Assembly (NCBI GenBank): GCA_000004695.1
Contig: CM000154.2
Span: 3,360,001 to 3,424,000 of the forward strand
From: Dictyostelium discoideum
Lineage: Eukaryota
Direction: 5' to 3'
DNA: 64,000 nt
Below the pieces are notes generated by a model. The model did not search any database. It worked only from the letters and a program-made list of their open reading frames with translations, and was not told where the DNA came from. Numbering within the stretch: position 1 is the first letter of the stretch; each line of letters opens with the position of its first letter. The translations under genes and the position numbers were made by a program. Below, one piece after another: positions 3,153 to 55,228 of this stretch.

Positions 3153-3290
3153 GGTTTTTATTTTAAAAGTATTATTATGTGTAATTCATATATTCACAAA
3201 ATGTAATAGAATAAAATAAATTTTGCATATGTGTAGTGTCGGTTTGTTCAATTTAATTTATTTTTTTTTTTTTTTATTTTGTAAAAAAGT

Positions 3291-3326
<36 letters not shown>

Positions 3327-3651
3327 CTTTGCGATTGTGAGGTTTTATGAATGATATCTAACTATAAAAGTCACTTTTTTAATAATAAAAAAAATAAAAA
3401 TAAAGTGGATTTTTAAAAAAAAAAAAATATATGTTTAAAAAAAAAAAAATTTTTTTAAGCTTGATTTTTCAATAAAAAAAAAAAAGAAATATATGAAAAA
3501 AAACGATGAAAGTGCAATAAAAGGTAGCGATAGAAATAATAATAAAAATAAAAAATGGGTGAATTGATTATATAATGGTTGTCCATATTATTTTTTTAAT
3601 ATTAAAGGAAAAAAGAAAAAAAAAAACCAATAACACAAAATATGAAACTAA

Positions 3652-3690
3652 GGGTGTGGGTGGGAATGGTGTGGTGGGTGGGGTATATAA
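3652..3690. promoter_or_regulatory. G-rich 'G-box'-like island (GGGTGTGGGTGGGAATGGTGTGGTGGGTGGGG) immediately followed by TATATAA.
   Basis: Strong GC island within a 2.4-kb A/T-homopolymer intergenic region between two minus-strand genes. It resembles the GT/G-box elements of Dictyostelium developmental promoters and a TATA box follows it. Confidence 0.3.
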
Positions 3691-3918
3691 TTAATAATAT
3701 TATTATTATTATGTTTTGTTGTAAATATGTTTCTCCAAATTGGGTGTGATTATATTAAATCTTTGATTTAGGTATACAAGTCAAAAATAAAATAAAAATA
3801 AAATAAAAATAAAAATAAAAATAAAATAAAAATAAAATAAATTATAAAATCAATTACAATAATTATTAATTATTAATTTGGGTGTGGTATTATAATCTAC
3901 TACAAATTATTATAATTA

Positions 3919-3949
<31 letters not shown>

Positions 3950-4056
3950 ATTATTTAATTACTATATTGTTTATTATTATTATTATTATTATTTATCGAT
4001 GAAAAAAAAAAATATTACTCTGGCTATGAAAAATTTTATTTTTTTTTTATTTTTTT

Positions 4057-4097
<41 letters not shown>

Positions 4098-4349
4098 GGG
4101 AACCCACCCCTTTTTTTCATATGAAAAATTTGAAAAAGAATTGTATGACCATTTTAACGAGAGAAAATATTATTTAAATGGAATAGAAAAAGAATCTATT
4201 AAAAAAAAAAAAAAAAAAAAAAAAAGAAAAAAGATAGTAAATAAATAAATAAAAATTTTACTTACTTCTACAAATTGTTCGATTATTAAATGTTTTTTTT
4301 TTTTTTATTTTATTTTATTTAAATTTTTTAATTGCTATTTACTTATTTA

Positions 4350-4380
<31 letters not shown>

Positions 4381-4511
4381 AAAATATTTATTTTTACAAA
4401 ATTTTAATTTAATAGTTTTAAGCTGTTTTGTTTTAAATAAAAAAAAGTTTGAAAATAAAAAAATTTAAAAAAGGTTTTTCCTTTAGTTTGGGATTTTTTA
4501 AATGAAAGGGG

Positions 4512-5071: not shown

Positions 5072-5970
5072 GATTAATATCAAATACCTTTTCAATTAAA
5101 TATGTTTCAAAAGGATATTTAGAATAGGTATTTATTTGAGAGATTTGATTTCCATCATTATTATTAATTGCGGTAGTAGTAGTGGTAGAGGTAGTGGTGG
5201 TGGTGGAAATATGCTTAAGATTTGGTAAATTAAATTTCACACTTTTAATAAAAGAATTAATAAAATTTTGATTTTGAGTAGTATCATTTTTTGAGTGAAT
5301 AATTACATGATTCCAAGTATTTAAGGGTGATATTAAATATTTAAAATATGATTTATTTTTAAATCTATAATCACTAATATCTAAAAAAAATGGTTTATCA
5401 AATGATTGAAACATATCAATACCATCATTTAGTAATGGTAATGGATAATGATTATTATTATCAATTAATGAACCTCTAATAATTCTCATTAAATAAGAAT
5501 ATTGTTCATTTACTTGAATATATTTTAATAAAAATCCAAATAAAATTGAACCACTGGAAATTTGATGAAAACATAAAATCCTATGAAATCCATCATCACC
5601 TTGGAAATAATTATCAATAAATTTTACAATTTCTATAATTCCATCTTCACAATTATCACTTAAATTATTACTATAATTATAAATTAATTTTAATATTATT
5701 ATAATTATTTTTATTATTTGAATATTGTTTTTTTTATTTTTTAATTTTTTTTTTTATTATTTTTTTTATTAATTTTTTTTTTTTTTTTTTGTTTAATAAT
5801 AAACTTACTTACATTGGTGAACATTTTAAACAATTAAAACCTCTTTCAATCCAATGACATGAAATTATTTCCAAATTAGGATCATTACTACCAGTTAATA
5901 AAACAACAACTGGTAGTTCTTTTTCATATTTTTTATAACAAAAAGGATTTTTTATATAGTTAATTTCCAT
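4902..5970 (-). CDS. DUF829/TMEM53-like protein, 2 exons (5813..5970 and 4902..5670; intron 5671..5812). Contains an internal poly-Asn tract.
   Basis: ATG at 5970 (MEINYIKNPF...). The donor is aat|GTAAGT (phase 2) and the acceptor TATAG restores the frame of ORF 4902..5489. Motif LPVVVLLTGSNDPNLEIISCHWIERGFNCL resembles the TMEM53 N-terminus PVVILLGWGGCKDKNLAKY...RGC. The C-terminus NPGEYQKVINQLIDIV is shared with the neighbouring gene. Confidence 0.55.
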
Positions 5971-6120
5971 TATACACTTAAATATATTTATATGATAATA
6001 GAAAAAAAAAAAAAAAAAACAAATAAAATAAAATTTTAAAAAAAAAAAATATAAAATAATTAATCATTATTTATTAATAAAAAAAAAAAAAAAAAAAAAT
6101 TATTCATATTTTTAATTTTT

Positions 6121-6250
6121 TAAGATGTTTGGGAGAGTGTGGTGGTGTTAGAATTAGATAAAAACATTTTTTTTTTTTCATTACGAATAAAATATATTAG
6201 ATAATTATTTGGAGTGTTTGAGGAGTGTGAGGAGTGTGGTGGCGATTGTA
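6121..6250. promoter_or_regulatory. GT-box cluster (GTTTGGGAGAGTGTGGTGGTG ... GGAGTGTTTGAGGAGTGTGAGGAGTGTGGTGGCG) 150-280 bp upstream of the DUF829 gene start at 5970.
   Basis: Repeated GAGTGTG/GTGGTG motifs in an otherwise AT-only spacer, positioned as a proximal promoter for the minus-strand gene. Confidence 0.3.
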
Positions 6251-6497
6251 TGATTTACTTTTATATCTTTCCAAACATTTGTTTTTTGTTTTGTTTTTTT
6301 TTTTTTTTAAAAAATTATAATTTTGTTATGTACAATCAATTATTATTTATTTTTTTTATTTATTTTTTTTGACAGATAAAAAATTCAAAAATAGAAAAAA
6401 CAGATAAAGTTTTGTTTAACCACTAGTGGTTACATATCTTTTTTTTTTTTTTTTTTTTTGACGACACTTCATGTTTTCAAATATTAAAAAGGGTTTT

Positions 6498-6542
<45 letters not shown>

Positions 6543-6558
6543 TAATAATATTTTTTAA

Positions 6559-7081
6559 TTATAAATATAAACAATTTCCCAAAGCTATAAAGTCATTTAT
6601 AGTTTTTTTATATTCTTCAGGGTGATTTTTAAAATGAAGAGCATGTTTTGAATCAAAAGTTTTTCTTTGTATTTGTCTATTTGAATTATTAACAGAGTTT
6701 TTAAATAATTCAACAAACAAATCAGAGGTATTTGGAAAGAAATCATCATATTCCCCACTAATTACTAAATAATTCCAACCATAATCATTGCTTAAAAAAT
6801 GTGGGAAATCATATTTACAATAGTATCTCCATTTTGATTTAAAAACTGGGAATATAGAAGCAAGAATATAACCAAATACACCTTTTTCTTTCATTGTTTT
6901 TGCAAGTCCTCTAAAAACTTCGGCTTCATTAATTATCATACCACTATCCAAAACAATAGATTTTATCATTGGTAATATATATTTATATTTCCCATTTTCA
7001 AAACTATTTAAACTTTTAATAAATGACCCAATATAACATGTTCCAACACTAAATAAAAAAATTAGAATATTAGTAGATGAA

Positions 7082-7112
<31 letters not shown>

Positions 7113-7387
7113 ATTTACCTAATTCCATGAAGATAAATAGTTTTTGAAGTATTTTTATTATTATTTAAATACTTATGAATTTCTTTAATTAAATTTTTAA
7201 CTTCCATTCTTAATAAAATTGTTGAAAAATCTAATGGAGGAATATTAACAAACACATCACAACCTTCCCAAATTTTACAAAACTTTTCCATTATTTTTTT
7301 ATTTGAACTTATAAATCCAAATATTACAACAAGTGGTTTTGTTTCATTTTGAAAAGAGTTTGAAGGGCGGAATATTAAGTCAAACAT
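6559..7387 (-). CDS. DUF829/TMEM53-like protein, tandem paralogue of 4902..5970. 2 exons: 7109..7387 and 6559..7048, with an intron at 7049..7108.
   Basis: MFDLIFRPSNSFQNETKPLVVIFGFISSNKKIMEKFCKIWEGCDVFV matches the TMEM53 N-terminus (PVVILLGW...KY...GC.V). The donor is ag|GTAAAT and the acceptor TTTAG gives an in-frame join (...LHGI-S-VGTCYIGSF...). The C-terminal NHPEEYKKTINDFI parallels NPGEYQKVINQLI of the neighbour. Confidence 0.55.
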
Positions 7388-7623
7388 TTTGAATTTCCTA
7401 TTTTATAAAATATAAATAAAAATTTATTCTATTTTTTTTTTCTTGTTTCCTTTTATATATTTTTTTTTTCTTTTTTTTATTATTAATTAATAAATCAATT
7501 TAAGGGGATTAGTATTTGTTTATTATATTAAATAATACGTAAAAACAAATTGTAGTAGTAGATAAAAATTAATAAATTTAGAAATATATTTTTTTTTTTT
7601 TTAAAATTACTCCCGAGATTCGG

Positions 7624-7666
<43 letters not shown>

Positions 7667-7898
7667 AAAAAAAAAAAAGGGATAGGCTTTACTAAAATAT
7701 AAAATAAAAAATAAATCTTTAATGGCAGTAGTTATAAATTTTTTATTTATTTTATTAATTTCATCTTAAGTAGGCGTTATTTTATATGGGTAAAAGCGAC
7801 TAACAACATTAATGGTTCATTATTATTTCCGAAATATTTTTTATATTCCCATTATTTTTTTTATTTTATTTATTTAATTTATTTTTTTTTATTTTTCA

Positions 7899-7943
7899 TT
7901 AATTTATTTTTAATTTGTTTGATGAAGACGAAAAATTTAAGGG

Positions 7944-7998
<55 letters not shown>

Positions 7999-8837
7999 AA
8001 ATTATTATTATTATTAGTATTTGAAATACTAATGTCACCAAATTCAAAAGCTTTAATTAAAACTATTAGGTTTGACATGAATTGTGTATATTGTTCTAGT
8101 GTGAATTCTTGGTCACTGAAACGAGCTTTTTCATAGGTGTCAATATAATGATTTGCATGATGTCTATCCAATTGAGGACACTGTTCCAATAAGAATTCTA
8201 CGTAATCTCTAATACAGGATTTAGGATCTTTCTTTAGGTGGGAACTATAATGAGTTGCAGCACTCTCTAAAACGATCCAACTCTTTGAAATCGATGTTTT
8301 AAAATGTACTTTACTATACTCTGAATTTGGTGGACCCCAACCTAAATGACCGATATTGGATGCGACTGAATTACCACCAATCATAGTGGGTTCAATCTTT
8401 GATTGAATTTGTTTCGATCTAACTATTTCATTTAAAATTATAGTTCTCTGTTTATTCGATAAATCACCTGGTCTTAAAAATGGCATAATCTTTCTTGGAA
8501 TTCTATCAATCATTCTATTCTTTAATCTAATTCTAACTTGTATTAATGAAAATGATAAAAATAACTATATATAGTAATTTATTAGTTAATAATTTATAGT
8601 TTTATTATTATAATAATAATAATTACATACCATTATACCAACAACAAATATAATAATTAGAAAATGTTGAAATGAAAACTTTCCAAATTCATTACTGGTA
8701 CTACTGCTACTACTATTACTACTACTATTATTATTATTTGATGTTACTTGTTCAGTTTTTGCATTAACGAATCCATTGTTTATTATTGTAAAAAATAAAA
8801 TACAACATGTAATAAATACAATTTTAAATTTATTCAT
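7899..8837 (-). CDS. Small type I membrane protein (signal peptide, Ser-rich ectodomain, one TM helix, ~200-aa cytoplasmic domain of unknown function with an Asn-rich tail). 2 exons: 8631..8837 and 7899..8564, intron 8565..8630.
   Basis: N-terminal MNKFKIVFITCCILFFTIINNGFVNA signal peptide. Hydrophobic FQHFLIIIFVVGIM spans the GTATGT donor. The acceptor TATATAG joins in frame to LFLSFSLIQVRIRLKNR-MIDRIPRK... (the listed M at 8513 is internal). Confidence 0.5.
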
Positions 8838-9166
8838 TTATAATTGAAAATTCTATAAATATATTTATATATACTTATAACACTAAATATTTTATTAAAT
8901 TACATATCTTTTAAAAAAATATTTAAATATTTTTTAAAATTATAATATAGTTGTATATATTTATATTTATATATATAAAAAGTTATAAGTTATGCATGGA
9001 GGAGTTTTAAAAATAATAAAAACAAAAAAAAAAATTTCAAATTTTTTTTTTTTTTTTATTTTTTTATTTTTTAATTTTTTTTTAATTTTCCATTTTTTTT
9101 TTTTTTTTTTCAAACAATTAAATACATATAAATATTTATACAAACACATAAAACATATAAAAAAAA

Positions 9167-9910
9167 ATGGGTGGTAAAAAATTTGGTACCAATTCAAAAG
9201 CAGAAGAAGCTCGTTCAAAGAAAGCAGAAGTTAAAAAGAATGAAAATGAAAAGAAACAAAGAGATAAAGAGGATAAAATGTGGGAAGAAACAGATACAAA
9301 AATTTTAGATAAACAAAAAAAACAAAAAGAAAAAGAGGAAAAAGCAAGAGAAGATGCAAAAAAGAAACAAGAAGCAAAAGAATTATTACAACAAGAAGAT
9401 AAAGAAATTAAAGAAAGATATGGTAAACCATCAGATACTAAAGTAACTCGTTTTGAAATTCAACAAAAGAGAGATAAAGAACAAAAACAAAGAGAAAAAG
9501 AACTTGCTTCAAGACCATCCGATCCAAGAGTTGTTGTAGTTCCAACAACAACAACAACAACAACAACTACAACTACAACTACCACTGGATCTGATGATCA
9601 TGAAGAAGAAGATTTTAACCTTGAAGAGAATATGAATCATATTTTACGTGAACAAAGATTGAAAGATGGTAAAGATGTTATTGATGCTAGAGATATTAAT
9701 GAAGCAATTGGTGCTTTATCAGGTAATGATGGAAAAGAACAACACCCAGAACGTAGAATGAAAGCTGCTTTCAATGCATATGAAGAAGAGAATTTACCAG
9801 TACTTAGAAAAGAAAATCCATCACTTCGTTTAACTCAAGTTAAACAATTGCTTTGGAAAAATTGGTTAAAAGCACCAGAGAATCCTTTCAATCAAGTTGG
9901 TTCTCAATAA
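9167..9910 (+). CDS. Coiled-coil domain-containing protein 124 (CCDC124/Lso2 family) homologue, intronless.
   Basis: Lys/Glu-rich coiled-coil N-terminus, then the conserved C-terminal Ccdc124 block HPERRMKAAFNAYEEENLPVLRKENPSLRLTQVKQLLWKNWLKAPENPFNQ. Confidence 0.75.
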   Translation: MGGKKFGTNSKAEEARSKKAEVKKNENEKKQRDKEDKMWEETDTKILDKQKKQKEKEEKAREDAKKKQEAKELLQQEDKEIKERYGKPSDTKVTRFEIQQKRDKEQKQREKELASRPSDPRVVVVPTTTTTTTTTTTTTTGSDDHEEEDFNLEENMNHILREQRLKDGKDVIDARDINEAIGALSGNDGKEQHPERRMKAAFNAYEEENLPVLRKENPSLRLTQVKQLLWKNWLKAPENPFNQVGSQ

Positions 9911-10228: not shown

Positions 10229-13200
10229 TTATTTAATTTTTATATATTTTAAAATTAAATTATACATTTCATTAAAACCTTGATTTTTAATATCATTAAT
10301 GAGTTCTTGATCAATTATTATACTATTTAATAATACATCTTTATGGTTTTCTAATAAATAATTGGAAATTAATTTACAATTCTTTGCGAATGGATTAATT
10401 TCAAAATTACCGAATAATAAATTACTAATACCTTTAGCATAATTTGAAATAATAAAATTTGTTATATCAATTCTTTCTAAAAGTATTGCCCATTTTAATA
10501 ATTTATCGATTGAAAATTCTTCTAAATCTAATTTCACCAATTCATTAATTACATCTTGAAAAGGAATTTTAAAAATACCACTTTTAAAAAATGATTTTAT
10601 AATTTCAGTTGATTGAAATTTAATTTCATGAGAAATTTTAAAAGAGTCAATATTATCTTTTAATAATGATATTGCCAATTGAGGTTCATTGATTGTTAAT
10701 AAATAACGCACACTTTTTCCATTACAAACTGGTTGAAAATAAATTTTCATTAATTCAATAACCAATAAATTAAATGAAGAATTTTTGATAAAATTAAATG
10801 AATGACCTTTATAAAAAAAGAAATGTTTTCCATAATGTGTCTTTTTTGAGAATATTGCAGATCTTGATAAATCTCTTGATGCTGGATCTTTAAGAAAAAT
10901 ATTTGATAATTTTTTATTCTTTAAATTGTAAAAGTAAAATGTATGATAGTATCCAATTGATAATGTAATGGAATTAATATCACATAATTCAATAATAAAT
11001 TCAATTTGTTGTAATGTAACATTTTTACTTTGAACTAAAAAATCAAATAGAATTTGAATCATTTCAATTGTTGTGAAATTATTAATTTCTCTTTTATCAA
11101 CTTTTTTTAATAATTGTTCAATAATTTCAATAATATCAAAAGAGTTTAAATCATTGGTTTTAATTTCACCAGTTGGAAGATTATAAATTGTAAATTCTTG
11201 ATTAAAAATTATATCTCTATCACTTGACAATGAAAAATAATTAAAAACTGTGAATGTTGTAATTTCATTTAATATATATTTAATTATTTTTAAACGATCA
11301 TTAAAATTAAAAGATTGTTTGAATAGGATTTCACAAATTATAATTGATGATTGGTTTTCAAATAAAGAGAATGCAATCTCTTTAAATGATGGGCAATTTT
11401 CAATTAATTTATCAATATTTGAAAATGAATTGAATAAACCAATAAAAAATGAACTAATACCATTTTCATTAAATAAATTTGTAAAATTAATTTCATTCAA
11501 ATAATTTAAAGTTTCATCTACCTTTTTATACATTTCCTCAGTGCATTTTCCTTGATTATCAAATGTGAAGGTTTTATTATCACCACCAATTTTAGCAAAT
11601 TTAATAATTTTCATTATTTCTTTAATACTTTCTAAATCAAAATTATTTAATAATTTTAAAAGATAATTATTGAATAATTCTTTTGGTGCATTTGGATAAT
11701 TTAATATTGCTTGTTTAACAATATCCACAGAGTTAATTACAAATGATAATGATTTGTAAAAATTTGAATAATTTGGATTATCATTATCATTTGAAGATAA
11801 TTGTGATGGTAAAAATAAATCATCCAATACTTTTAAATGATTAAATTGTGAAACAGAATCAATTTTAAAATTTGATTTTAAACCAATTAAATAATCTGAA
11901 AATTTAAATGATTTGATTGAAAAGAATAATGAGTATTCATCATCATCATCATTACCTGCATTACCATCATTATCTTCCTCTTGTTTAGATTTTAATAAAT
12001 TAATTAATTTTACCATTTGTGAAGGACAATTAAGATCAAAAGAGTATAATAATTTTGAAATTAATTTTAAAGGAAAATCAGGTACACTTTCAATTATTTC
12101 TTTTAATACATTAAATTCGCAAAATTTTAATATTGCAGATATAATGTATAACCAACCATTATATTTCATTGAAAAGTGATTATCATTTTTGAAATAAAGT
12201 TTACTAAATTCTATTACCAAGTTTGGGCTTTCAAGTAAAACTTGTTGGTTTGGGAAAAATACTAAAACTCCATTGAATCTAAAAGATGTTTCAATTAAAT
12301 ACTTTAAACCATTGATTGAAAACATTGAAAATGTATATGATACTACACTTTCACTATCGATTAAATCAAAATCATCATCATATTCACAAAGATATGAAAA
12401 ACTAAAATCTTGATGAGTTAACTCTTGTGTTAATTTTAATTTTAGAAATTTTAATTTCTCTTTTTCACATTTTAAATCTTTTATCATTTCATTAACTATT
12501 TGATCAACTTTTTTTGTATCAACCAATAAATCATTAGATTTGTAGACACATTTATATAAGAATATAAAATCATCTAAACTATAATTATTATAGTTATTTA
12601 CAACAATTGAACTTGGAAAACTCTTTTTAAAATTAATAAAACCATTAAGGAATAGTTTAATTTGTAAATCCCTATGAGCCGAGTCAAGTTTTATTATAGT
12701 TTCCAAAGGGATACTATACATTGTATCACTTATTGAATCCTCTTTTTTTGGATACAGTTCTGGATAATTATTATAAATCACCGATATAAATCCAAAATCT
12801 TCTTCTCCTTTTTCTTTTGAAAGAAATCTATATAATAATTGATTTTTTAATAAATCAATATCACTTTGTTGATTACTTTCTTTTAATGCCAAATATACAA
12901 TTTCAAAAATTTGCATTGAAGTTATATAAAATTCACTATCATATGAATTTATTTGATTAAATTGAATTGGTAATTTCATTCCAGTTTCTTCATCAATATA
13001 ATTAATGAAATATTTTAATGAAATTTCATTTTCACACTCTATTGATTGATTAATCGGATCAATTATTGAATTGATTTCTTCTTTTTTAAATTTATATAAT
13101 AATTTGATTGTATCTAAATCTTCATTACAATATTTAAAAAATTTTGATAATCCTTTTTTATCAATTCTTATATATTGATTACTAATTAATTTATCTTTTA

Positions 13201-41304: not shown

Positions 41305-48014
<6,710 letters not shown>

Positions 48015-48397
48015 GTAATAGTTTCAAAAATAAATAAAAGAGAATAAATTTTAAATAAAAAAAAAATAAAAAAAAAAATTAACAAATCACTTTTGGAAAA
48101 TGTGATAATAATTATAATTATTATTATTTCTCTCTATCTTTTTTTTTTTTAAAAAAAAAAATAAAGTAATAATATTTATTAAGATTAATTTTGATTAAAT
48201 AATAATAATTTAATTATCTTCATTCTTAATTTTATCCCAAAAAAAAAAAAAAAAAAAAAAAAAAAATTATTGATTAATATATGTCGATATATTTTTAATA
48301 TTAAAAATAAAATATAAATTTATTAATATAAACTTTTTTAATTAGTGGTTGTTTTTTTAAACCAAATTGCTTGAAAATGTTAAAAATTCTTGTTTTA

Positions 48398-48727
48398 TTA
48401 ACTTTGCCTTGAAAGATCAGAATTAATTGAAATTGAAATCTGTCTTAAAGAAAGGTTAGGTTGATTTTTGTGAATATCAATAACTTTGGAAACTAAGATT
48501 GAATATTCCTCAGGAGTAAACTTTGGTTTTGTTCTTAATCTTCCATGAGATTGTCTGATTTTTCCATTTCTATAGTCTCGAAGATAATAATTAAGTTGAT
48601 CTTTGGTAAAGCCATTCTGTCTTGCTGCTTTAGAATAATTTCCCATCATTAAACCTTGTCCTATAGCATCATATATTCTCTCTGTCTTTTCAATTAATTG
48701 GTCTACTGATCTCTTTGGTTTTACCAT
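48398..48727 (-). CDS. Isolated 109-aa helix-turn-helix ORF resembling the N-terminal DNA-binding domain of a DNA-transposon transposase (pogo/Tc1-mariner/CENP-B type). Likely a transposon relic or a domesticated fragment.
   Basis: MVKPKRSVDQLIEKTERIYDAIGQGLMMGNYSKAARQNGFTKDQLNYYLRDYRNGKI...KPKFTPEEYSILVSKVIDIHKNQPNLSLRQIS has the pattern 'basic N-terminus, two short HTH units, then LSLRQI' seen in transposase N-termini. No DDE catalytic domain and no terminal inverted repeats are present nearby. Confidence 0.4.
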   Translation of the reverse strand: MVKPKRSVDQLIEKTERIYDAIGQGLMMGNYSKAARQNGFTKDQLNYYLRDYRNGKIRQSHGRLRTKPKFTPEEYSILVSKVIDIHKNQPNLSLRQISISINSDLSRQS

Positions 48728-49129
48728 TTTGTTAATATTATTATTGATTTTTGGTAAATAAAAAAAAAAAAAAATTACAATTTGTTTTTGGAAGTTAATT
48801 GCAATAATTATAATAGATTTTTTATTTTATTTAGAAAATTATATATTTTATTTTTTGAATTAAAAAAACTGATTACCACATTTTTTTAAATCGACAACCA
48901 CCAATAAAATAAAAAAAATTATTTATATAACCCCAGCAGTTAAAAATAGTTTTTATACAATCATTTTAATATTATAATTTACAACACAAAAAAACCTCAA
49001 TAAAATTAATAATAGTTATATTTTTGGAATTTTAAAATGAAAACTTTACAAATAATTAAATTTAATTTTAAAGCTATTAATTTATTTACAATATATTTTT
49101 TAATTTATTTGATTAAAAAAATACTATTA

Positions 49130-50881
49130 TTATTTGATATTTATTTGATAAATTGTAAATACCTTTTCACCCAATTCAATATTTGAATATTTTGAAAATA
49201 ATTGTGATAAATCTTTTTTAGCTTGATTAAAAAATAGAGTATTTAATTCTATGATAGATTTATGTAATTTCATTTGCCAACACCAATCAAATCTTTTTTC
49301 TAAATCTATTGATTTTTGATATAAATTTCTAATTTTAATTTGATTATTATCATCTTTTTCATAGTTCATTTTATTATTACTATTATTACTATCAATACCA
49401 TAATGATAAATTAAAGCTAACCAAAAATATGGCATTGATAAATTTGGATGTTTTGTTATTTCATTAATCAATGAATTTTTAATTAATGTGTGGCCATATT
49501 TACCAATATATCTATGAGATAATAATAATTCTTCGATTGAATATTCTAAAGGATGTAATGTTTGAAACATTGAGAAACATAATTTAAAATTTTCTTTACA
49601 AAATGAATGTAAACCTTCTTGATTTAATCTATAATAAAACAATTCCTCTTCGATTACCAATGGATTTAAACCACTTTTAAAATTATCTTGATTATTAAAT
49701 TCAATTGGTGATGTTGATTTTTTAATTTCAAACTGTTTATGTTGATAATGATCTTCATCATCATCATCATCTTGATCATCTTTATTCTCTTTGCTTTTAT
49801 TTATATTATTTTTATTAATTATATTATTACTATTATTTAAATGCTTATGATGCTTATGATTAAAAAAGTATCTATCAGCTCGTAACCAAAAATCCCAATC
49901 TTCCCAACCAAACCAACAAGATTCATCATATCCACCAACATTTTTCCACATTGATTTTTTGAATAATGCTGAACAATGTAATAAATTTGAATTTCTTAAA
50001 AGGTTTCTATTCCATTTTGGTATTTTCCAATCACCAACTTTATTAACATAACCCTTCTTATCATCAATATTACTATTTTTAAATCTTAATAAATTTGAAA
50101 TAACTACTATATTATCAATATTATCTTGGGATTGTTGTAGTCTCTTTTTTTCAATTTTTAAAATTGCTTTCTCAAAAAATGATTTATCGATTAAATCATC
50201 TGAATCTAAAGGTAGTATCCAAGTACCAGTTGAGAATTCAATACCAACATTCCTTGAATATGATAACCCTTTATTTCTATTAAAAATTATTGTAATATTC
50301 TATTTAGAAATAAAAAATAATAATTTTAATATTTTAATAATAATAATAAAAATAATTATTAAGTTTTTAAATAAAAAGATAAAATAAAAAAATCTTACCA
50401 TTTCATCAATAAATTTATTAAATAATGATATTAAATGTTTCTTTGAATTCCATTCTGTTGAACCATCATCAACAACTATAACTTCAAAATTCTTAAATGT
50501 TGATTCTTTCAATGAATTTAGTGTATACTCAATATATTTTAATTGATTATAAATTGGAATAATAACTGATATTAAAACATTATTGTTATTATTGTTATCA
50601 TTATTATTATTATTTTTTTTATTATAAAATTCTATGTTTATTTTACTGATTGAATATTTGTTTGATATTATCTTGTTGTATTTTGAAAGTGAATAATTAT
50701 GATTATTTTTATTATCATTATTATTTTCAATGTCTTCTTCAACATCAAAATTTTTATTATTATTATTATTATTATAAATTAAAATAAAAATAATAAATAA
50801 TATTAAAAAACTTAATAAAATTAAAAAATTTCTTAATGTTGATCCTTTAGTTTTTTTATTACTCTTTTTATTATAAAACAT
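49130..50881 (-). CDS. Family 2 glycosyltransferase (GT-A fold), type II membrane topology. 2 exons: 50399..50881 and 49130..50299, intron 50300..50398.
   Basis: N-terminal TM helix LRNFLILLSFLILFIIFILIY. GT2 motifs VLISVIIPIYNQLKYIEYTLNSL...FEVIVVDDGST (DxD) and, after the atg|GTAAGA...AATAG splice, NRNKGLSYSRNVGIEFSTGTWILPLDSDD plus WFGWEDWDFW. Confidence 0.75.
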
Positions 50882-50994
50882 TTTAATTAAAATATTTATT
50901 AAAACATATGAAAATTTTTGTTATTTTTTTTATAAATAACTATTAATATTATTATTAAGGTGTGTGAATATATTAAAAAAATGGGGTAAAAAAA

Positions 50995-51060
50995 ACAGTG
51001 AGAGATTGTGTATGAATTAAAAAAAAAAAGTGAGAGATTGTGTGTTGGGGTGATTTGTTT
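50995..51060. promoter_or_regulatory. GT-rich promoter island with a direct repeat AGTGAGAGATTGTGT(x2) and a GTTGGGGTGATTTG G-box-like element, 115-180 bp upstream of the GT2 gene start.
   Basis: A GC-containing island in otherwise A/T-homopolymer DNA. The 15-mer occurs twice, 33 bp apart. Confidence 0.35.
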
Positions 51061-52057
51061 TTTTTTTTTTTTTTTTTTTTGTTTTTTTTTATTGAAAAGA
51101 ATAAAATAGTTTTTGAAAAAAAAATGAAATAAATAAAAAAATATATACAAGTGAAAAAAAAAGATAAAGAAAATAAAAAAAAAATAAAAAAATAAAAAAA
51201 ATAAAAAGGATATAAATTAAGTTTCTACAACATGTCTAAAAATAAAAAATATATATAAAAATATAAAAATGTTATAAGCAACACAAGTTAAAAAAACAAA
51301 TAAAAAAAATATATTACTTTCATTGTTCATTTATATTAAGAATAAAAAATAAAAAAAAAAAAAAAATTTTAATTTATTTTTTTCTTTTTATTTTATTTTA
51401 TTTATTTTATTTTATTTTATTGTATTTTATTTTATTTTATTTTAAATGATGTGAAGCAAAATGAATAGAAAAAAAAAAACAATAAAAAAAAAATAATAAT
51501 TAAAAAAAAAAAAAAAAAAAGAAACAGAAAAAAAAAAAATAATAATAATAATAATAAAAATAATAAAAAAAAAAATCTTTTTTATTTAAATGAAATATTT
51601 GAGTTTTTAAATGCGAACCACAAATAAAAAATGTGTTTACTGCTGGTGTTAATGCAATTATCTCATTAATTATTATGAAAATACAAAAAAACAAAAAAAA
51701 AAAAAATATAAAAAAAAAAAAAAAAAAAAACAATAAACAAACGTTTTTGGTTATTCAATATGATTTAAATATTTTGAAAATAATAATAAAATTAAAAAAA
51801 AAATTAAAAAAAAATTAAAAAAATTAAAAAAAATTAAAAAATCATATATCTTTAAAAAAAAAATAAAAATAAAAATAAAAATAAAAAAAAAAAAATAAAA
51901 AAATCAAAAGATTTAAAAAAAAAAAAAAAAAATCATATATCTCTTAAAAAAAAAAAACACAAACTAAAATTTCTTCAATGATATTTAAAAAAAAAAAGTT
52001 ATATTTTAATTTAATTTAAAAAATAAAAAAAAAATAAAAAATAAAAAATAAAAAAAA

Positions 52058-52951
52058 ATGAAAGTAATAATTTTATTTTATTTTTTAATTTTAATTTTAA
52101 TTTTTTCAAAAATTGTAAAGTCATCAAATAATAATAATAATAATAATAATAATAAAGATAATCTTAATTGCCACAATATAATTAATGATGTTAATAACAA
52201 TAAAAAAATTAATGATGAAAATGTATATTTTGATTATCAAAATGATGAAATTTTAAAAGAAACAATTCATTATAATAATAGACTTTTAAAAAATAATAAA
52301 CAAATTAATCAAATTAATGATAATAACCCACCAACACAAACACCACCACCATTATCACCTTTTCAAGAAGGTATTTATAAAATTAGACCATCATTTCCAA
52401 ATGTGACATTAGGTGGTAAGAATGGTGGTCACTCATTTTTAACGAATTTAAAAGGGTCATGGGAACTTGGTGGTTATGATAGTTGGGTATTTTATAAGGA
52501 TAATGGGATATTACAAGTATTAAATAATGGTGATATTATTATAAGTGGTCCAATTGTACCAACAAATCAACAATCAAGTTGTCATAGTTGGTTTGTTAAT
52601 ATGATGTTTACACCATTACCAAAGGAAATTAAAAAAACACCAAGAAAAGATTTATACAAGCATTCTTATCAACCTTTAGGTTCGATTAATCCTGAAAATT
52701 GGAAATTCTATCAACCTATTCAACTATTAAATAATTCTTGGATTGCAATTGGTTGTAATCATATCAAAATCATTCAATTCGATGGTACAACTTTTCAAAA
52801 TAAACCACTTCAATTTGGTATTGGTGCAAATGGTAAAAATGAAAATAATGGTATATTATTCTCAATTCCAATACCATTTAATTCAAAAAATAATTTAAAA
52901 AATAAAAGAGATTATATTGATATAAATGTTGATATTGTTTTAATTTCTTAA
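52058..52951 (+). CDS. Secreted hypothetical protein (297 aa) with an N-terminal signal peptide.
   Basis: MKVIILFYFLILILIFSKIVKSS signal sequence, a poly-Asn tract, then a globular region containing conserved Cys/Trp residues. No family recognised. Confidence 0.5.
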   Translation: MKVIILFYFLILILIFSKIVKSSNNNNNNNNNKDNLNCHNIINDVNNNKKINDENVYFDYQNDEILKETIHYNNRLLKNNKQINQINDNNPPTQTPPPLSPFQEGIYKIRPSFPNVTLGGKNGGHSFLTNLKGSWELGGYDSWVFYKDNGILQVLNNGDIIISGPIVPTNQQSSCHSWFVNMMFTPLPKEIKKTPRKDLYKHSYQPLGSINPENWKFYQPIQLLNNSWIAIGCNHIKIIQFDGTTFQNKPLQFGIGANGKNENNGILFSIPIPFNSKNNLKNKRDYIDINVDIVLIS

Positions 52952-52975
52952 TAAATAAATAAATAAATAAAAAAA

Positions 52976-53001
52976 TTATTTATTTAATTCAATATTATTT
53001 A

Positions 53002-53065
<64 letters not shown>

Positions 53066-54159
53066 ATTTTCATCAATTGTATTTGATTCTAAACCGAAAT
53101 ATAATGAATTAATTAAAAATAAAGCACCTAATAAAATTGATTTTTGGTGAATTGTTGATTTTGGTGGGAAATCAATATAGATGTTATCTTTATCATTGAA
53201 AAGAGATTGTTGTAATCCTGAATATAATTTTGAGATTTCTCCAATTTCATCACCATCTGAAATTATATTTGAAAGTGTATTTAAAATTGATTGATCATTA
53301 TTTAAGAATGATTGTTGTTGTTGTTGGTGTTTTTGTTGATGATGATGTGGATTTTGTTGTTGATAAATTTTCATTTGATAATATGATGAAAGGGATTGAG
53401 ATGTTATCATTTTATTATTAGTTATATTTGAATTATTTTTAATTTTATGACCAACGATTTTAAATTGTTCATTATTATCATCATCATAAATTTTGAAAAC
53501 TGGTTGAAACCAACTAAACTCTTCTTTAACTCTACCTAAATAAACTCTTGGCGTTGCTGTGTTATCACCACAGAAAATTAGTAAATCTTGATGACAACTT
53601 TCAATTGCACAACAACATAGTATACCACAGAAGCAACCTTGTCTACCACATTGTTTATCTCTTTTAAATTTTAATATTTCACTTCCATCCAATGTTTGAA
53701 TACTAATTTTATATGGTCTATATTTTTGAAAACTTAAAAAATCTGAATAATTATCTCTATAATATTCTTTACCAATTAAAATTACTTTAATAAAAAAATA
53801 AATAAAAAAAAATAATAAATAAAAATTTTAGTAATTAAAAAAAAAAGAAATAAAAAAAAAAATAAAAAAAAAGATTGTTCACTGAAATTTTATTATTTTA
53901 AGTTGCTTTTACAATTATTTAAAAAAAAGAAAAAATGAGCCCAAAAAAGATATTTTCATTTTCGGTGAAAAAAAAAAAAAAAGCAATAAAAAAAAAAATG
54001 ATAGAAGATATATTTACAATCATTGTTGACGCCATAAATATTAAATTGGCCTTCTTTTTTTCTTGATTTAAAAATATTTTTAAAAAAATTATTTTCTTCA
54101 ATTGATTCCTTCACAATAAATGTATCAAAGTGTAAAAAAAATTCCAATGATTCATCCAT
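52976..54159 (-). CDS. Phospholipid scramblase family protein. 2 exons: 54018..54159 and 52976..53784, intron 53785..54017. About 316 aa.
   Basis: Scramblase hallmarks RPYKISIQTLDGSEILKFKRDKQCGRQGCFCGILCCC (compare human PLSCR1 [32 protein letters not shown]) and the Ca-binding/C-terminal helix DNIYIDFPPKSTIHQKSILLGALFLINSLYFG (compare [32 protein letters not shown]). The true ATG is at 54159 (MDESLEFFLHFDTFIVKESIEE... compare LEYLSQIDQILIHQQIELLE). The donor is t|GTAAAT (phase 1). The listed M at 53692 is a TTG inside exon 2. Confidence 0.75.
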
Positions 54160-55228
54160 TATTATTTTTATTGACGAAATTTGATTAAGTAAAATTTTAA
54201 TATAAAAATTCTATCTACAATTATACTATTTATAATTTACCACTAATAAAAAAAATATTAATTTGATAAAAAAAAAAAAAAATAAAAAAAAAAATAAAAA
54301 AAAATATAAAAAAATAAATAAAAAAAAATAAAAAAAAATAAAAATAATAATTGGCACCACACAAAAAAATTTTTGGTTTTGTTTTTAATTTTTTTTTTAT
54401 TAATTGAAATTTCATTTAATAAATTCTATTTTTATCAATTATTATTACTTTTTTTTTTTTTTTTTTTTTTTCATAATATAGATTTATAAAAAATAAATCA
54501 AAGTATTGAAATTAAATTAATTATTTCTTTGATGATTTTATTTTTATTTTATTTTATTTATTTTTTTATTTTTTTTTTTTTTAATTTTCCATTGTGATAC
54601 TCAAATAATAAAAAAAAAATATTGGTGATTGATGAATTAAAAATATAATTTTAATCATTGGTAATGGTATTATAAACTTCTTTTGCACATAGAAATTAAA
54701 TTTTTTTTTTTTTTTTTTTATGCAGTTAAATTTTATTATTTCCAAAAAAAAAATAAAATCACTGCCTTCCTAAAAAAAAAAAAAAAATATAAAAAAAAAT
54801 TAAAAAATAATAAAATTCGATGAATCTTTTTTTATGAGATTTACAGGGCATGCAAAGATATCCCAAAATATACACTCAAAAATTCGAAAAAAAAAAAATT
54901 ATTTATTTTTATTTTTTTTTATTTTTTTTTTATTTTTGATACACACAACTTAATTTTTATATGGTAGCATAAAAATTTATTTTTTTTTATTTTTAATTTT
55001 TGTTTTTTTTTTTTTAATAATTTTTTTTTTTTAAAATTTTTATTTCCCAATTAAATTTTTTTTTTTCTTTATTATTTTTAAGTCTTTCATCACATTATTA
55101 TTATCTCTCATTATTTTCTAAAATTATTTTTTGTTTTCCTAAAATTTTAAAAAAAAAAAAAAGAAAAAAACCAATGGGTATGTTATTATCATCACTCTTT
55201 TACTTTACACACACAACAAAACCTATAT

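Follow-up and report, generated by a model that had tools for sequence, protein, structure and literature searches.

A stand-alone gene derived from the DNA-binding domain of a Tc1-like transposase in Dictyostelium discoideum

Introduction

New transcription factors and repressors of transposons have repeatedly arisen from transposase derivatives that consist of the DNA-binding domain (DBD) only. A candidate for such a derivative is situated in a 64-kb stretch of D. discoideum AX4 DNA (the window, to which all positions given without a contig refer), where an ORF of 109 aa extends from ATG to TAA on the minus strand at 48398..48727. A preliminary description of this DNA had read the ORF as the orphan N-terminal helix-turn-helix (HTH) domain of a pogo/Tc1/mariner transposase, either a transposon fossil or an exapted DNA-binding protein of the CENP-B/Jerky type. 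The locus thus raises the questions from which transposase family the ORF is derived, whether it belongs to a mobile element, and whether it represents a retained gene or a dead relic.

The orphan ORF and its neighbourhood

The ORF is clean from ATG to stop, as described before, and is 100% identical to DDB_G0289911 (XP_635970.1, UniProt Q54GU9), a hypothetical protein of AX4. It is homologous to residues 1-103 of the transposases DDB_G0286157 and DDB_G0272288 and shares its start codon with them. On the same strand and 402 bp upstream, a gene with a Glycos_transf_2 domain (Pfam E 3e-12) is located. The intergenic region between the stop of this gene and the ATG of the ORF (48728..49129, minus strand, GC 0.13) is the presumed promoter and contains neither a terminal inverted repeat (TIR) nor a second element ORF. 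On the other side, an A/T-rich spacer (48015..48397, GC 0.11) without any remnant of a DDE_3 catalytic exon extends to the stop of a large convergent gene, whose first exon matches Med24_N with 23.2 bits, just below the cutoff of 25. The placement between a glycosyltransferase gene and med24 was therefore described correctly, with the Med24 match just under the threshold. Due to the distance of only 383 bp between the stop of the ORF and that of the Med24-like gene, there is no room for catalytic exons.

With a GC content of 0.30, the ORF exceeds the neighbouring exons (0.22-0.27) and the flanking spacers (0.11-0.13), in agreement with the composition that had been called untypical of Dictyostelium, but its GC3 of 0.18 equals that of host genes. 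Due to this host-like GC3, the “foreign” look of the ORF stems from its amino-acid content and not from its nucleotide composition.

Homology to Tc1-like transposases

Residues 2-104 of the ORF align with residues 1-103 of DDB_G0286157 at 52% identity (BLASTP, E 7e-37), and the tblastn comparison of DDB_G0286157 with the window likewise gives 52% identity (E 5e-31). In case of the longer, 133-aa allele of a wild strain (see below), 52% identity to DDB_G0286157 is found over 124 residues (E 8e-44). The homology begins at the start codon of the transposase (MVKPKRS versus MKPKRS) and, for the wild allele, ends only a few codons before exon 1 does (GLKKQPPIKK/V-C versus GWNYHSPIYKQ/V-C). DDB_G0286157 on chromosome 4 carries the UniRef name “Tc1-like transposase DDE domain-containing protein”; its paralogue DDB_G0272288 on chromosome 2 is more than 90% identical and belongs to a common cluster. 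Both are DDE_3 proteins of 352 aa, and their N-terminal 124 residues are homologous to the orphan with 52-57% identity. The start codon, two three-helix bundles, the RQSHGG-R linker, and the end of exon 1 are common to both transposases and the orphan. In contrast to them, the orphan lacks residues ~136-352 with the D..D38E catalytic domain, introns, and TIRs, and resides at a fixed syntenic locus.

In a HMMER search of 1.8 billion representative proteins, relatives were found only in the D. discoideum species complex. A profile search resulted in 16 family members, including DDB_G0286157. Several relatives extend beyond the region shared with the ORF into a DDE_3 domain, e.g., P0005 (Pfam E 1e-19), and an AX4 transposase (P0011) matches DDE_3 in Pfam with 1.6e-16. 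The transposases contain the motifs F-L-D-E-C, M-D-N-A-P-I-H, and N-P-I-E in our own assignment, with 38 residues from the second D to the E, and the catalytic domain of Sleeping Beauty is weakly matched by the family profile (E 0.065). Identity between the orphan and any of four transposase lineages amounts to 42-57%, compared to 47-56% among these lineages themselves. Due to this similar distance to all lineages, the orphan constitutes a separate lineage of considerable age instead of a fragment of recent origin.

Compared to Pfam on its own, the ORF reaches sub-threshold scores for HTH_29 (PF13551, 15.4-18.1 bits, cutoff 28.1) and HTH_28 (PF13518, 17.4 bits, cutoff 25), and these matches map to the first HTH bundle. 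DDE_3 is not matched in the ORF, and CENP-B_N, HTH_Tnp_Tc5, and DDE_1 give no Pfam match even at E <= 10. Matches to SCF and to a collagen adhesin, obtained with the ORF alone in Pfam and PDB sequence searches, were spurious or sub-threshold and were discarded; a 794-aa repeat protein (P0008, E 4e-4) was rejected as a low-complexity false positive.

Derivation of the ORF from a Tc1-like transposase is almost certain. The end-to-end alignment with the N-terminal part of DDE_3 transposases from AX4 itself (E 7e-37) bears out the assignment as an orphan transposase N-terminal HTH domain, while the proposed pogo/Tc1/mariner parentage can be narrowed: DDE_3 and the D..D38E spacing support the Tc1-like part, but not pogo, which is characterized by DDE_1. 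A pogo-derived domesticated protein of the CENP-B/Jerky type is very improbable, since CENP-B, Jerky, and TIGD are, like the orphan, transposase-derived host genes retaining HTH DNA binding, with HTH domains that derive from the wider Tc1/mariner/pogo group just as the Tc1-like ones do, but belong to a different family (DDE_1, CENP-B_N, HTH_Tnp_Tc5) of which no domain was detected in the ORF, keep a degenerate catalytic domain where the orphan has none, and are set apart by the DDE_3 domain, instead of DDE_1, in all sequence relatives of the orphan.

The parent transposon family

The Tc1-like DNA transposon family of the D. discoideum complex comprises at least five lineages. An identical 348-aa transposase (P0009) occurs at four places in D. 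cf. discoideum (L003-L006). The DNA shared by these copies amounts to ~3.46 kb (6092-9554 in case of L003), is 99% identical between copies, and ends in each of them in inverted repeats of ~80-100 bp with the exact 22-nt core GTGCGTTTTGGACAAATCACCC. At all 8 element ends the sequence TA-TTGTGCG is found, beyond which the sequences are unrelated, in keeping with a duplicated TA target site. Since two of the four copies share their flanks, these two go back to a segmental duplication and not to separate insertions. In addition to the transposase gene, the element contains a second, divergent ORF of ~385 aa without a Pfam match. As a whole, the 3.46-kb element looks recently active. L004 and L005 are located on the same contig, ~30 kb apart and in opposite orientation, with identical flanks and the same Ig_TgrO1-domain neighbour genes, as would be explained by the inverted segmental duplication of a tgr-like gene region together with the transposon inside it.

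The transposase gene possesses introns (donor GTAAGT/GTATGT), and its exon 1, encoding residues 1-135, corresponds to the DNA-binding region. In case of P0009, exon 1 alone would give a DBD-only ORF of 138 aa, nearly the size of the wild orphan. The P0009 element belongs to the same family as the orphan (47.6-50% identity in the DBD), but unlike the orphan it is complete, with TIRs, TA flanks, the second ORF, and 99%-identical copies.

Further DBD-only ORFs were observed in this family. A Logan contig (L010:195-635, SRR24091727), aligned to L007:8832-10088, represents an intron-less, cDNA-like contig of the AX4-type transposase, in which exon 1 is spliced to exon 2 at an alternative acceptor located 94 nt into the exon (TTTTTTAG/ATGAATGC). 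Due to the skipped 94 nt the frame is shifted, resulting in a DBD-only product of 146 aa. Other Logan ORFs, such as P0021 (143 aa), continue from exon 1 into intron 1. D. cf. discoideum also contains another stand-alone DBD-only gene model, P0004 (ACTFIY_001390, 150 aa), on the same 5.06-Mb contig as the orphan's orthologue P0003. P0004 shares 80-85% identity with the N-terminal part of the DDE_3 protein P0005, and thus solo DBD fragments arose more than once in the family.

In strain ACTFIR (L007:2500-11500), the DDB_G0286157 orthologue is flanked by long inverted repeats (3197-3478 versus 10249-10537) with 92% identity over ~290 nt and more beyond, and a further inverted duplication is present (3478-4389 versus 5965-6849); the locus is situated 2 kb from the contig end, and its nested repeats are complex. 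P0019 (ACTFIT_002521, 596 aa) is a gene model with a full transposase fused to an actin-like sequence, as judged by eye, and probably reflects an annotation or assembly artefact or an insertion beside such a gene. In the searchable literature, neither a Tc1-like Dictyostelium element nor a link of such an element to DDT-A/B/S, Tdd, or thug was found.

Predicted fold

The AlphaFold2 model of the 133-aa allele, built from a 13-sequence alignment with a mean pLDDT of 82, contains helices 8-28, 31-37, and 42-53, which are separated by a basic linker from three more at 72-88, 94-102, and 115-125. The first three helices constitute the first HTH bundle, a PAI-like subdomain (residues 8-53; 48569..48706, minus strand). 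It is followed by the basic linker NGKIRQSHGRLRTKPKFT (residues 54-71; 48515..48568, minus strand), a coil of low pLDDT whose motif R-Q-S-H-G-G-x-R is conserved across the transposase family in the alignment. Helices 1 and 2 of the second, RED-like bundle (residues 72-102; 48422..48514, minus strand) are delimited by the model and the alignment, and this bundle is incomplete in the AX4 allele. In the model of the 109-aa AX4 protein, the first bundle is kept with block-mean pLDDT values of 83-89 over residues 11-50, and the second bundle consists of two helices (72-88, 94-102) of lower confidence. Both of the HTH-like units noticed earlier were therefore modelled, but the second one possesses only two of its three helices in AX4.

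In Foldseek, the best PDB folds for the 133-aa model were the paired domains of Pax6 (probability 0.97) and Pax5, followed by Mos1 transposase and the DBD of SETMAR bound to a TIR. The predicted fold of the orphan is hence a bipartite paired-like domain, with two three-helix bundles in the wild allele. Identities to the DBDs of Pax, Mos1, SETMAR, and Tc3 range from 7 to 21% and TM-scores from 0.3 to 0.37, the latter being low due to the free orientation between the two subdomains. Tc3, Mos1, Sleeping Beauty, and Pax paired domains bind DNA via two HTH bundles and a basic linker. SETMAR retains the whole transposase, fused to a SET domain, and Pax proteins, in which further domains are attached, are essential and of ancient origin, in contrast to the orphan, which is a young stand-alone gene.

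Absence of a mobile element at the locus

Comparison of the full-length relatives with the whole 64-kb window in any frame (tblastn, tblastx) matched the ORF region alone. Even with up to 3 mismatches allowed, the window does not contain the TIR core of the related element, blastn with the L003 and L007 elements gave nothing specific in the window, and the repeats around the ORF are restricted to A/T low-complexity direct and inverted ones. All of these searches agree with the previous statement that no DDE domain, TIRs, or target-site duplication (TSD) are present nearby. Due to the absence of these three features, the orphan is no member of a transposase or transposon family in a functional sense. 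The TIRs of an ancestor diverged by 50% could have decayed beyond recognition. A similarity of ACAAATCAC / TTTTGGA at 48083-48100 and 48770-48793 was judged to be a chance occurrence. An origin as a retrocopy was rejected, since the long downstream homopolymer is poly-T on the sense strand, not poly-A.

It is hardly credible that the ORF represents the first exon of an intact or recently active element with its other exons and TIRs in the vicinity. Relatives that share its N-terminus are indeed full, intron-containing transposases, with multiple copies in D. cf. discoideum and two or more in AX4. Against this stand the lack of any DDE_3-like sequence in the window and of a detectable TIR, the 383 bp left before the convergent Med24 stop, the occurrence of a single, syntenic locus in each of the three genomes inspected at this site, and an identity of 42-57% to any element. 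In line with the preliminary description, the orphan is not part of an intact multi-copy element at this locus, and its intact relatives elsewhere are 47-57% identical.

Orthologues and the AX4 allele

The order of glycosyltransferase gene, orphan, and Med24-like gene is the same in AX4, in the wild D. discoideum assembly ACTFIW (L001), and in D. cf. discoideum (L002), with colinear DNA throughout. Orthologous placement in related genomes, a point raised in the preliminary description, is thereby observed within the D. discoideum complex. The orthologous proteins comprise 133 aa in ACTFIW (P0002) and 139 aa in D. cf. discoideum (P0003), and a near-identical 133-aa protein is encoded by strain ACTFIR. 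Within the complex, the orphan shows the genomic arrangement expected of a domesticated gene, with a single copy at an orthologous, syntenic locus without element termini. In more distant species, the glycosyltransferase query was recovered in P. violaceum and C. fasciculata only. At the P. violaceum locus synteny is broken, and hence it is uninformative on the age of the insertion.

Judged from the alignments, the AX4 allele is a truncated version of this 133-139-aa gene. Compared to the orthologues of ACTFIW and D. cf. discoideum, 11 bp are missing in the DNA alignment at 48416..48418, with the junction placed as AGAAGGCAGCA or AAGAAGGCAGC. Due to this deletion the frame is shifted, a stop follows five codons later, and the last helix of the second HTH is lost. 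In another frame, the lost helix can still be read at 48304-48417 (IFQGKVNKTRIFNIFKQFGLKK). This remainder of the ancestral coding region (48304..48417, minus strand; alignment and tblastn) encodes IFQGKVNKTRIFNIFKQFGLKKQPLIKK..., which comprises the third helix of the second HTH, its recognition helix, together with the end of the former transposase exon 1, and residues 107-124 of the AX4 transposase P0011 match 48417-48364 in tblastn. Since a second chromosome-level assembly and a Logan contig assembled from reads carry the 11-bp deletion as well, an assembly error is not the cause. Both are 99.8% identical to the window and thus belong to the same lineage as AX4.

The 3′ end of the gene differs in all three genomes, with the 11-bp deletion in AX4, a 1-bp insertion in an A-run in L001, and a predicted intron in L002. 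To judge from these sequences, the variability looks like relaxed constraint on the C-terminus. Across positions 42000-55000 of the window, L001 and L002 show ~4-5% mismatches to AX4, with a dS of 0.05-0.13 in the flanking genes. Such a level is high for strains of a single species, which suggests that the D. discoideum complex contains deep lineages.

Selection and expression

For the orphan, dN/dS is 0.32-0.42 and thus below 1 in all three pairwise comparisons of AX4, L001, and L002. Its dS of 0.066-0.127 is accompanied by values of 0.05-0.13 in the neighbouring exons, which have a dN/dS of 0.05-0.40 (Med24 exons: 0.05-0.19). With ~23 substitutions only, the binomial p versus neutrality is 0.09 for AX4 and L001 and 0.014 for AX4 and L002. 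Nonsense substitutions are absent from 126 codons across the tree, for which P is ~0.02-0.05 under neutrality, given 72-76 possible stop-adjacent changes and a neutral tree length of ~0.13-0.16.

With respect to transcription, DDB_G0289911 is listed four times among the up-regulated genes of cAMP-pulsed, starving AX4 suspension cultures in the suspension_UP part of a published RNA-seq supplement (Rosengarten et al. 2015, PMC4403905, Additional file 7). Two of the four entries are Hr05_rapid and Hr06_rapid according to our column count in this file. The listing may also be compatible with read-through from the glycosyltransferase gene upstream on the same strand. Searchable main texts do not mention DDB_G0289911, and the other supplements examined have no entry for it.

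Retained gene or fossil

The orphan originated from a Tc1-like transposon (IS630/Tc1/mariner superfamily, DDE_3) that inserted between the glycosyltransferase and Med24 genes in the ancestor of the D. discoideum species complex. Everything except exon 1 of the transposase, which is predicted to encode a complete bipartite paired-like HTH domain, was then lost, with the original start codon kept, and the ORF now ends a few codons into the former exon 1 end or intron 1. Since the 133-139-aa protein lacks a catalytic domain, it could only bind DNA, presumably through the two HTH bundles and the basic linker, and transposon-end-like sequences would be the most likely target. It may act as a non-catalytic competitor or repressor of related mobile elements, or as a co-opted small host DNA-binding factor. 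Moderate purifying selection seems to maintain the gene, which also appears to be transcribed during starvation. In the AX4/NC4 lineage, the 109-aa product, with the first HTH and the basic linker intact, would have partial function at best.

A transposase-derived DNA-binding gene that is retained in wild strains and damaged in AX4 is the best explanation and, in our view, probably the correct one. Taken by itself, the claim that the wild strains carry a functional gene and not a neutral relic is one towards which we lean with slightly more reserve. The most serious competitor, clearly less probable and by no means negligible, is a neutral fossil, i.e., a decaying fragment of a dead insertion that stayed open by chance, is transcribed incidentally, and is functionless in all strains. 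Three different C-termini in three genomes, together with a frameshifting deletion in the laboratory lineage, are in good agreement with decay, and so are the restriction to one species complex and a dN/dS that exceeds that of the Med24 exons and deviates from neutrality with marginal significance. Moreover, although an ORF evolving neutrally would rarely have stayed open, the probability of this is not negligible. A fossil is more difficult to reconcile with dN/dS values below 1 in each of the comparisons at a dS equal to that of the neighbours, with the lack of nonsense codons in 126 codons of a genome with 78% A+T, and with the preservation of the start codon and the full domain despite ~50% protein divergence from every extant transposase lineage. 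The listing as a regulated gene in Additional file 7 of PMC4403905 also argues against it. Considering that the AX4 lineage tolerates the loss of the last helix and that the gene is confined to one species complex, both of which speak against retention, the evidence modestly favours a retained DNA-binding gene over a dead relic.

What such a retained gene might do is suggested by truncated-transposase repressors, such as the KP and 66-kDa proteins of the P-element and N-terminal fragments of Tc1/mariner transposases that compete for TIRs. They have the same architecture as the orphan, a DNA-binding part without a catalytic part, but are encoded by the elements themselves via internal deletion or intron retention, whereas the orphan is fixed in the host chromosome, is ~50% diverged from the elements, and has only a putative TIR-binding activity. 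By analogy to these repressors, and given the 146-aa DBD-only spliced transcript, it is tempting to speculate that the wild 133-139-aa protein binds the ends of still-active Tc1-like transposons and damps their transposition as a chromosomal counterpart of the DBD-only splice isoform. We consider this proposal in its full form improbable, and a specific role as a repressor of transposition, more broadly taken, scarcely less so. The proposal is weakened by D. cf. discoideum, where an intact orphan coexists with 99%-identical, apparently recently active copies, and any repression would thus be incomplete.

Implications

The orphan is a stand-alone, transposase-derived DNA-binding gene that is young and lineage-restricted, and hence a known kind of gene. 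For the uncharacterised DDB_G0289911/Q54GU9, the analysis provides an origin and predicts a likely activity, namely sequence-specific DNA binding without catalysis. Furthermore, a small Tc1-like DNA transposon family was uncovered in the D. discoideum complex. Conceptually not new, the orphan offers a young example in a genetically manipulable organism, of which the reference laboratory strain AX4 carries a truncated allele. If the repressor role were true, AX4 would be a natural partial knockout via the 11-bp deletion.
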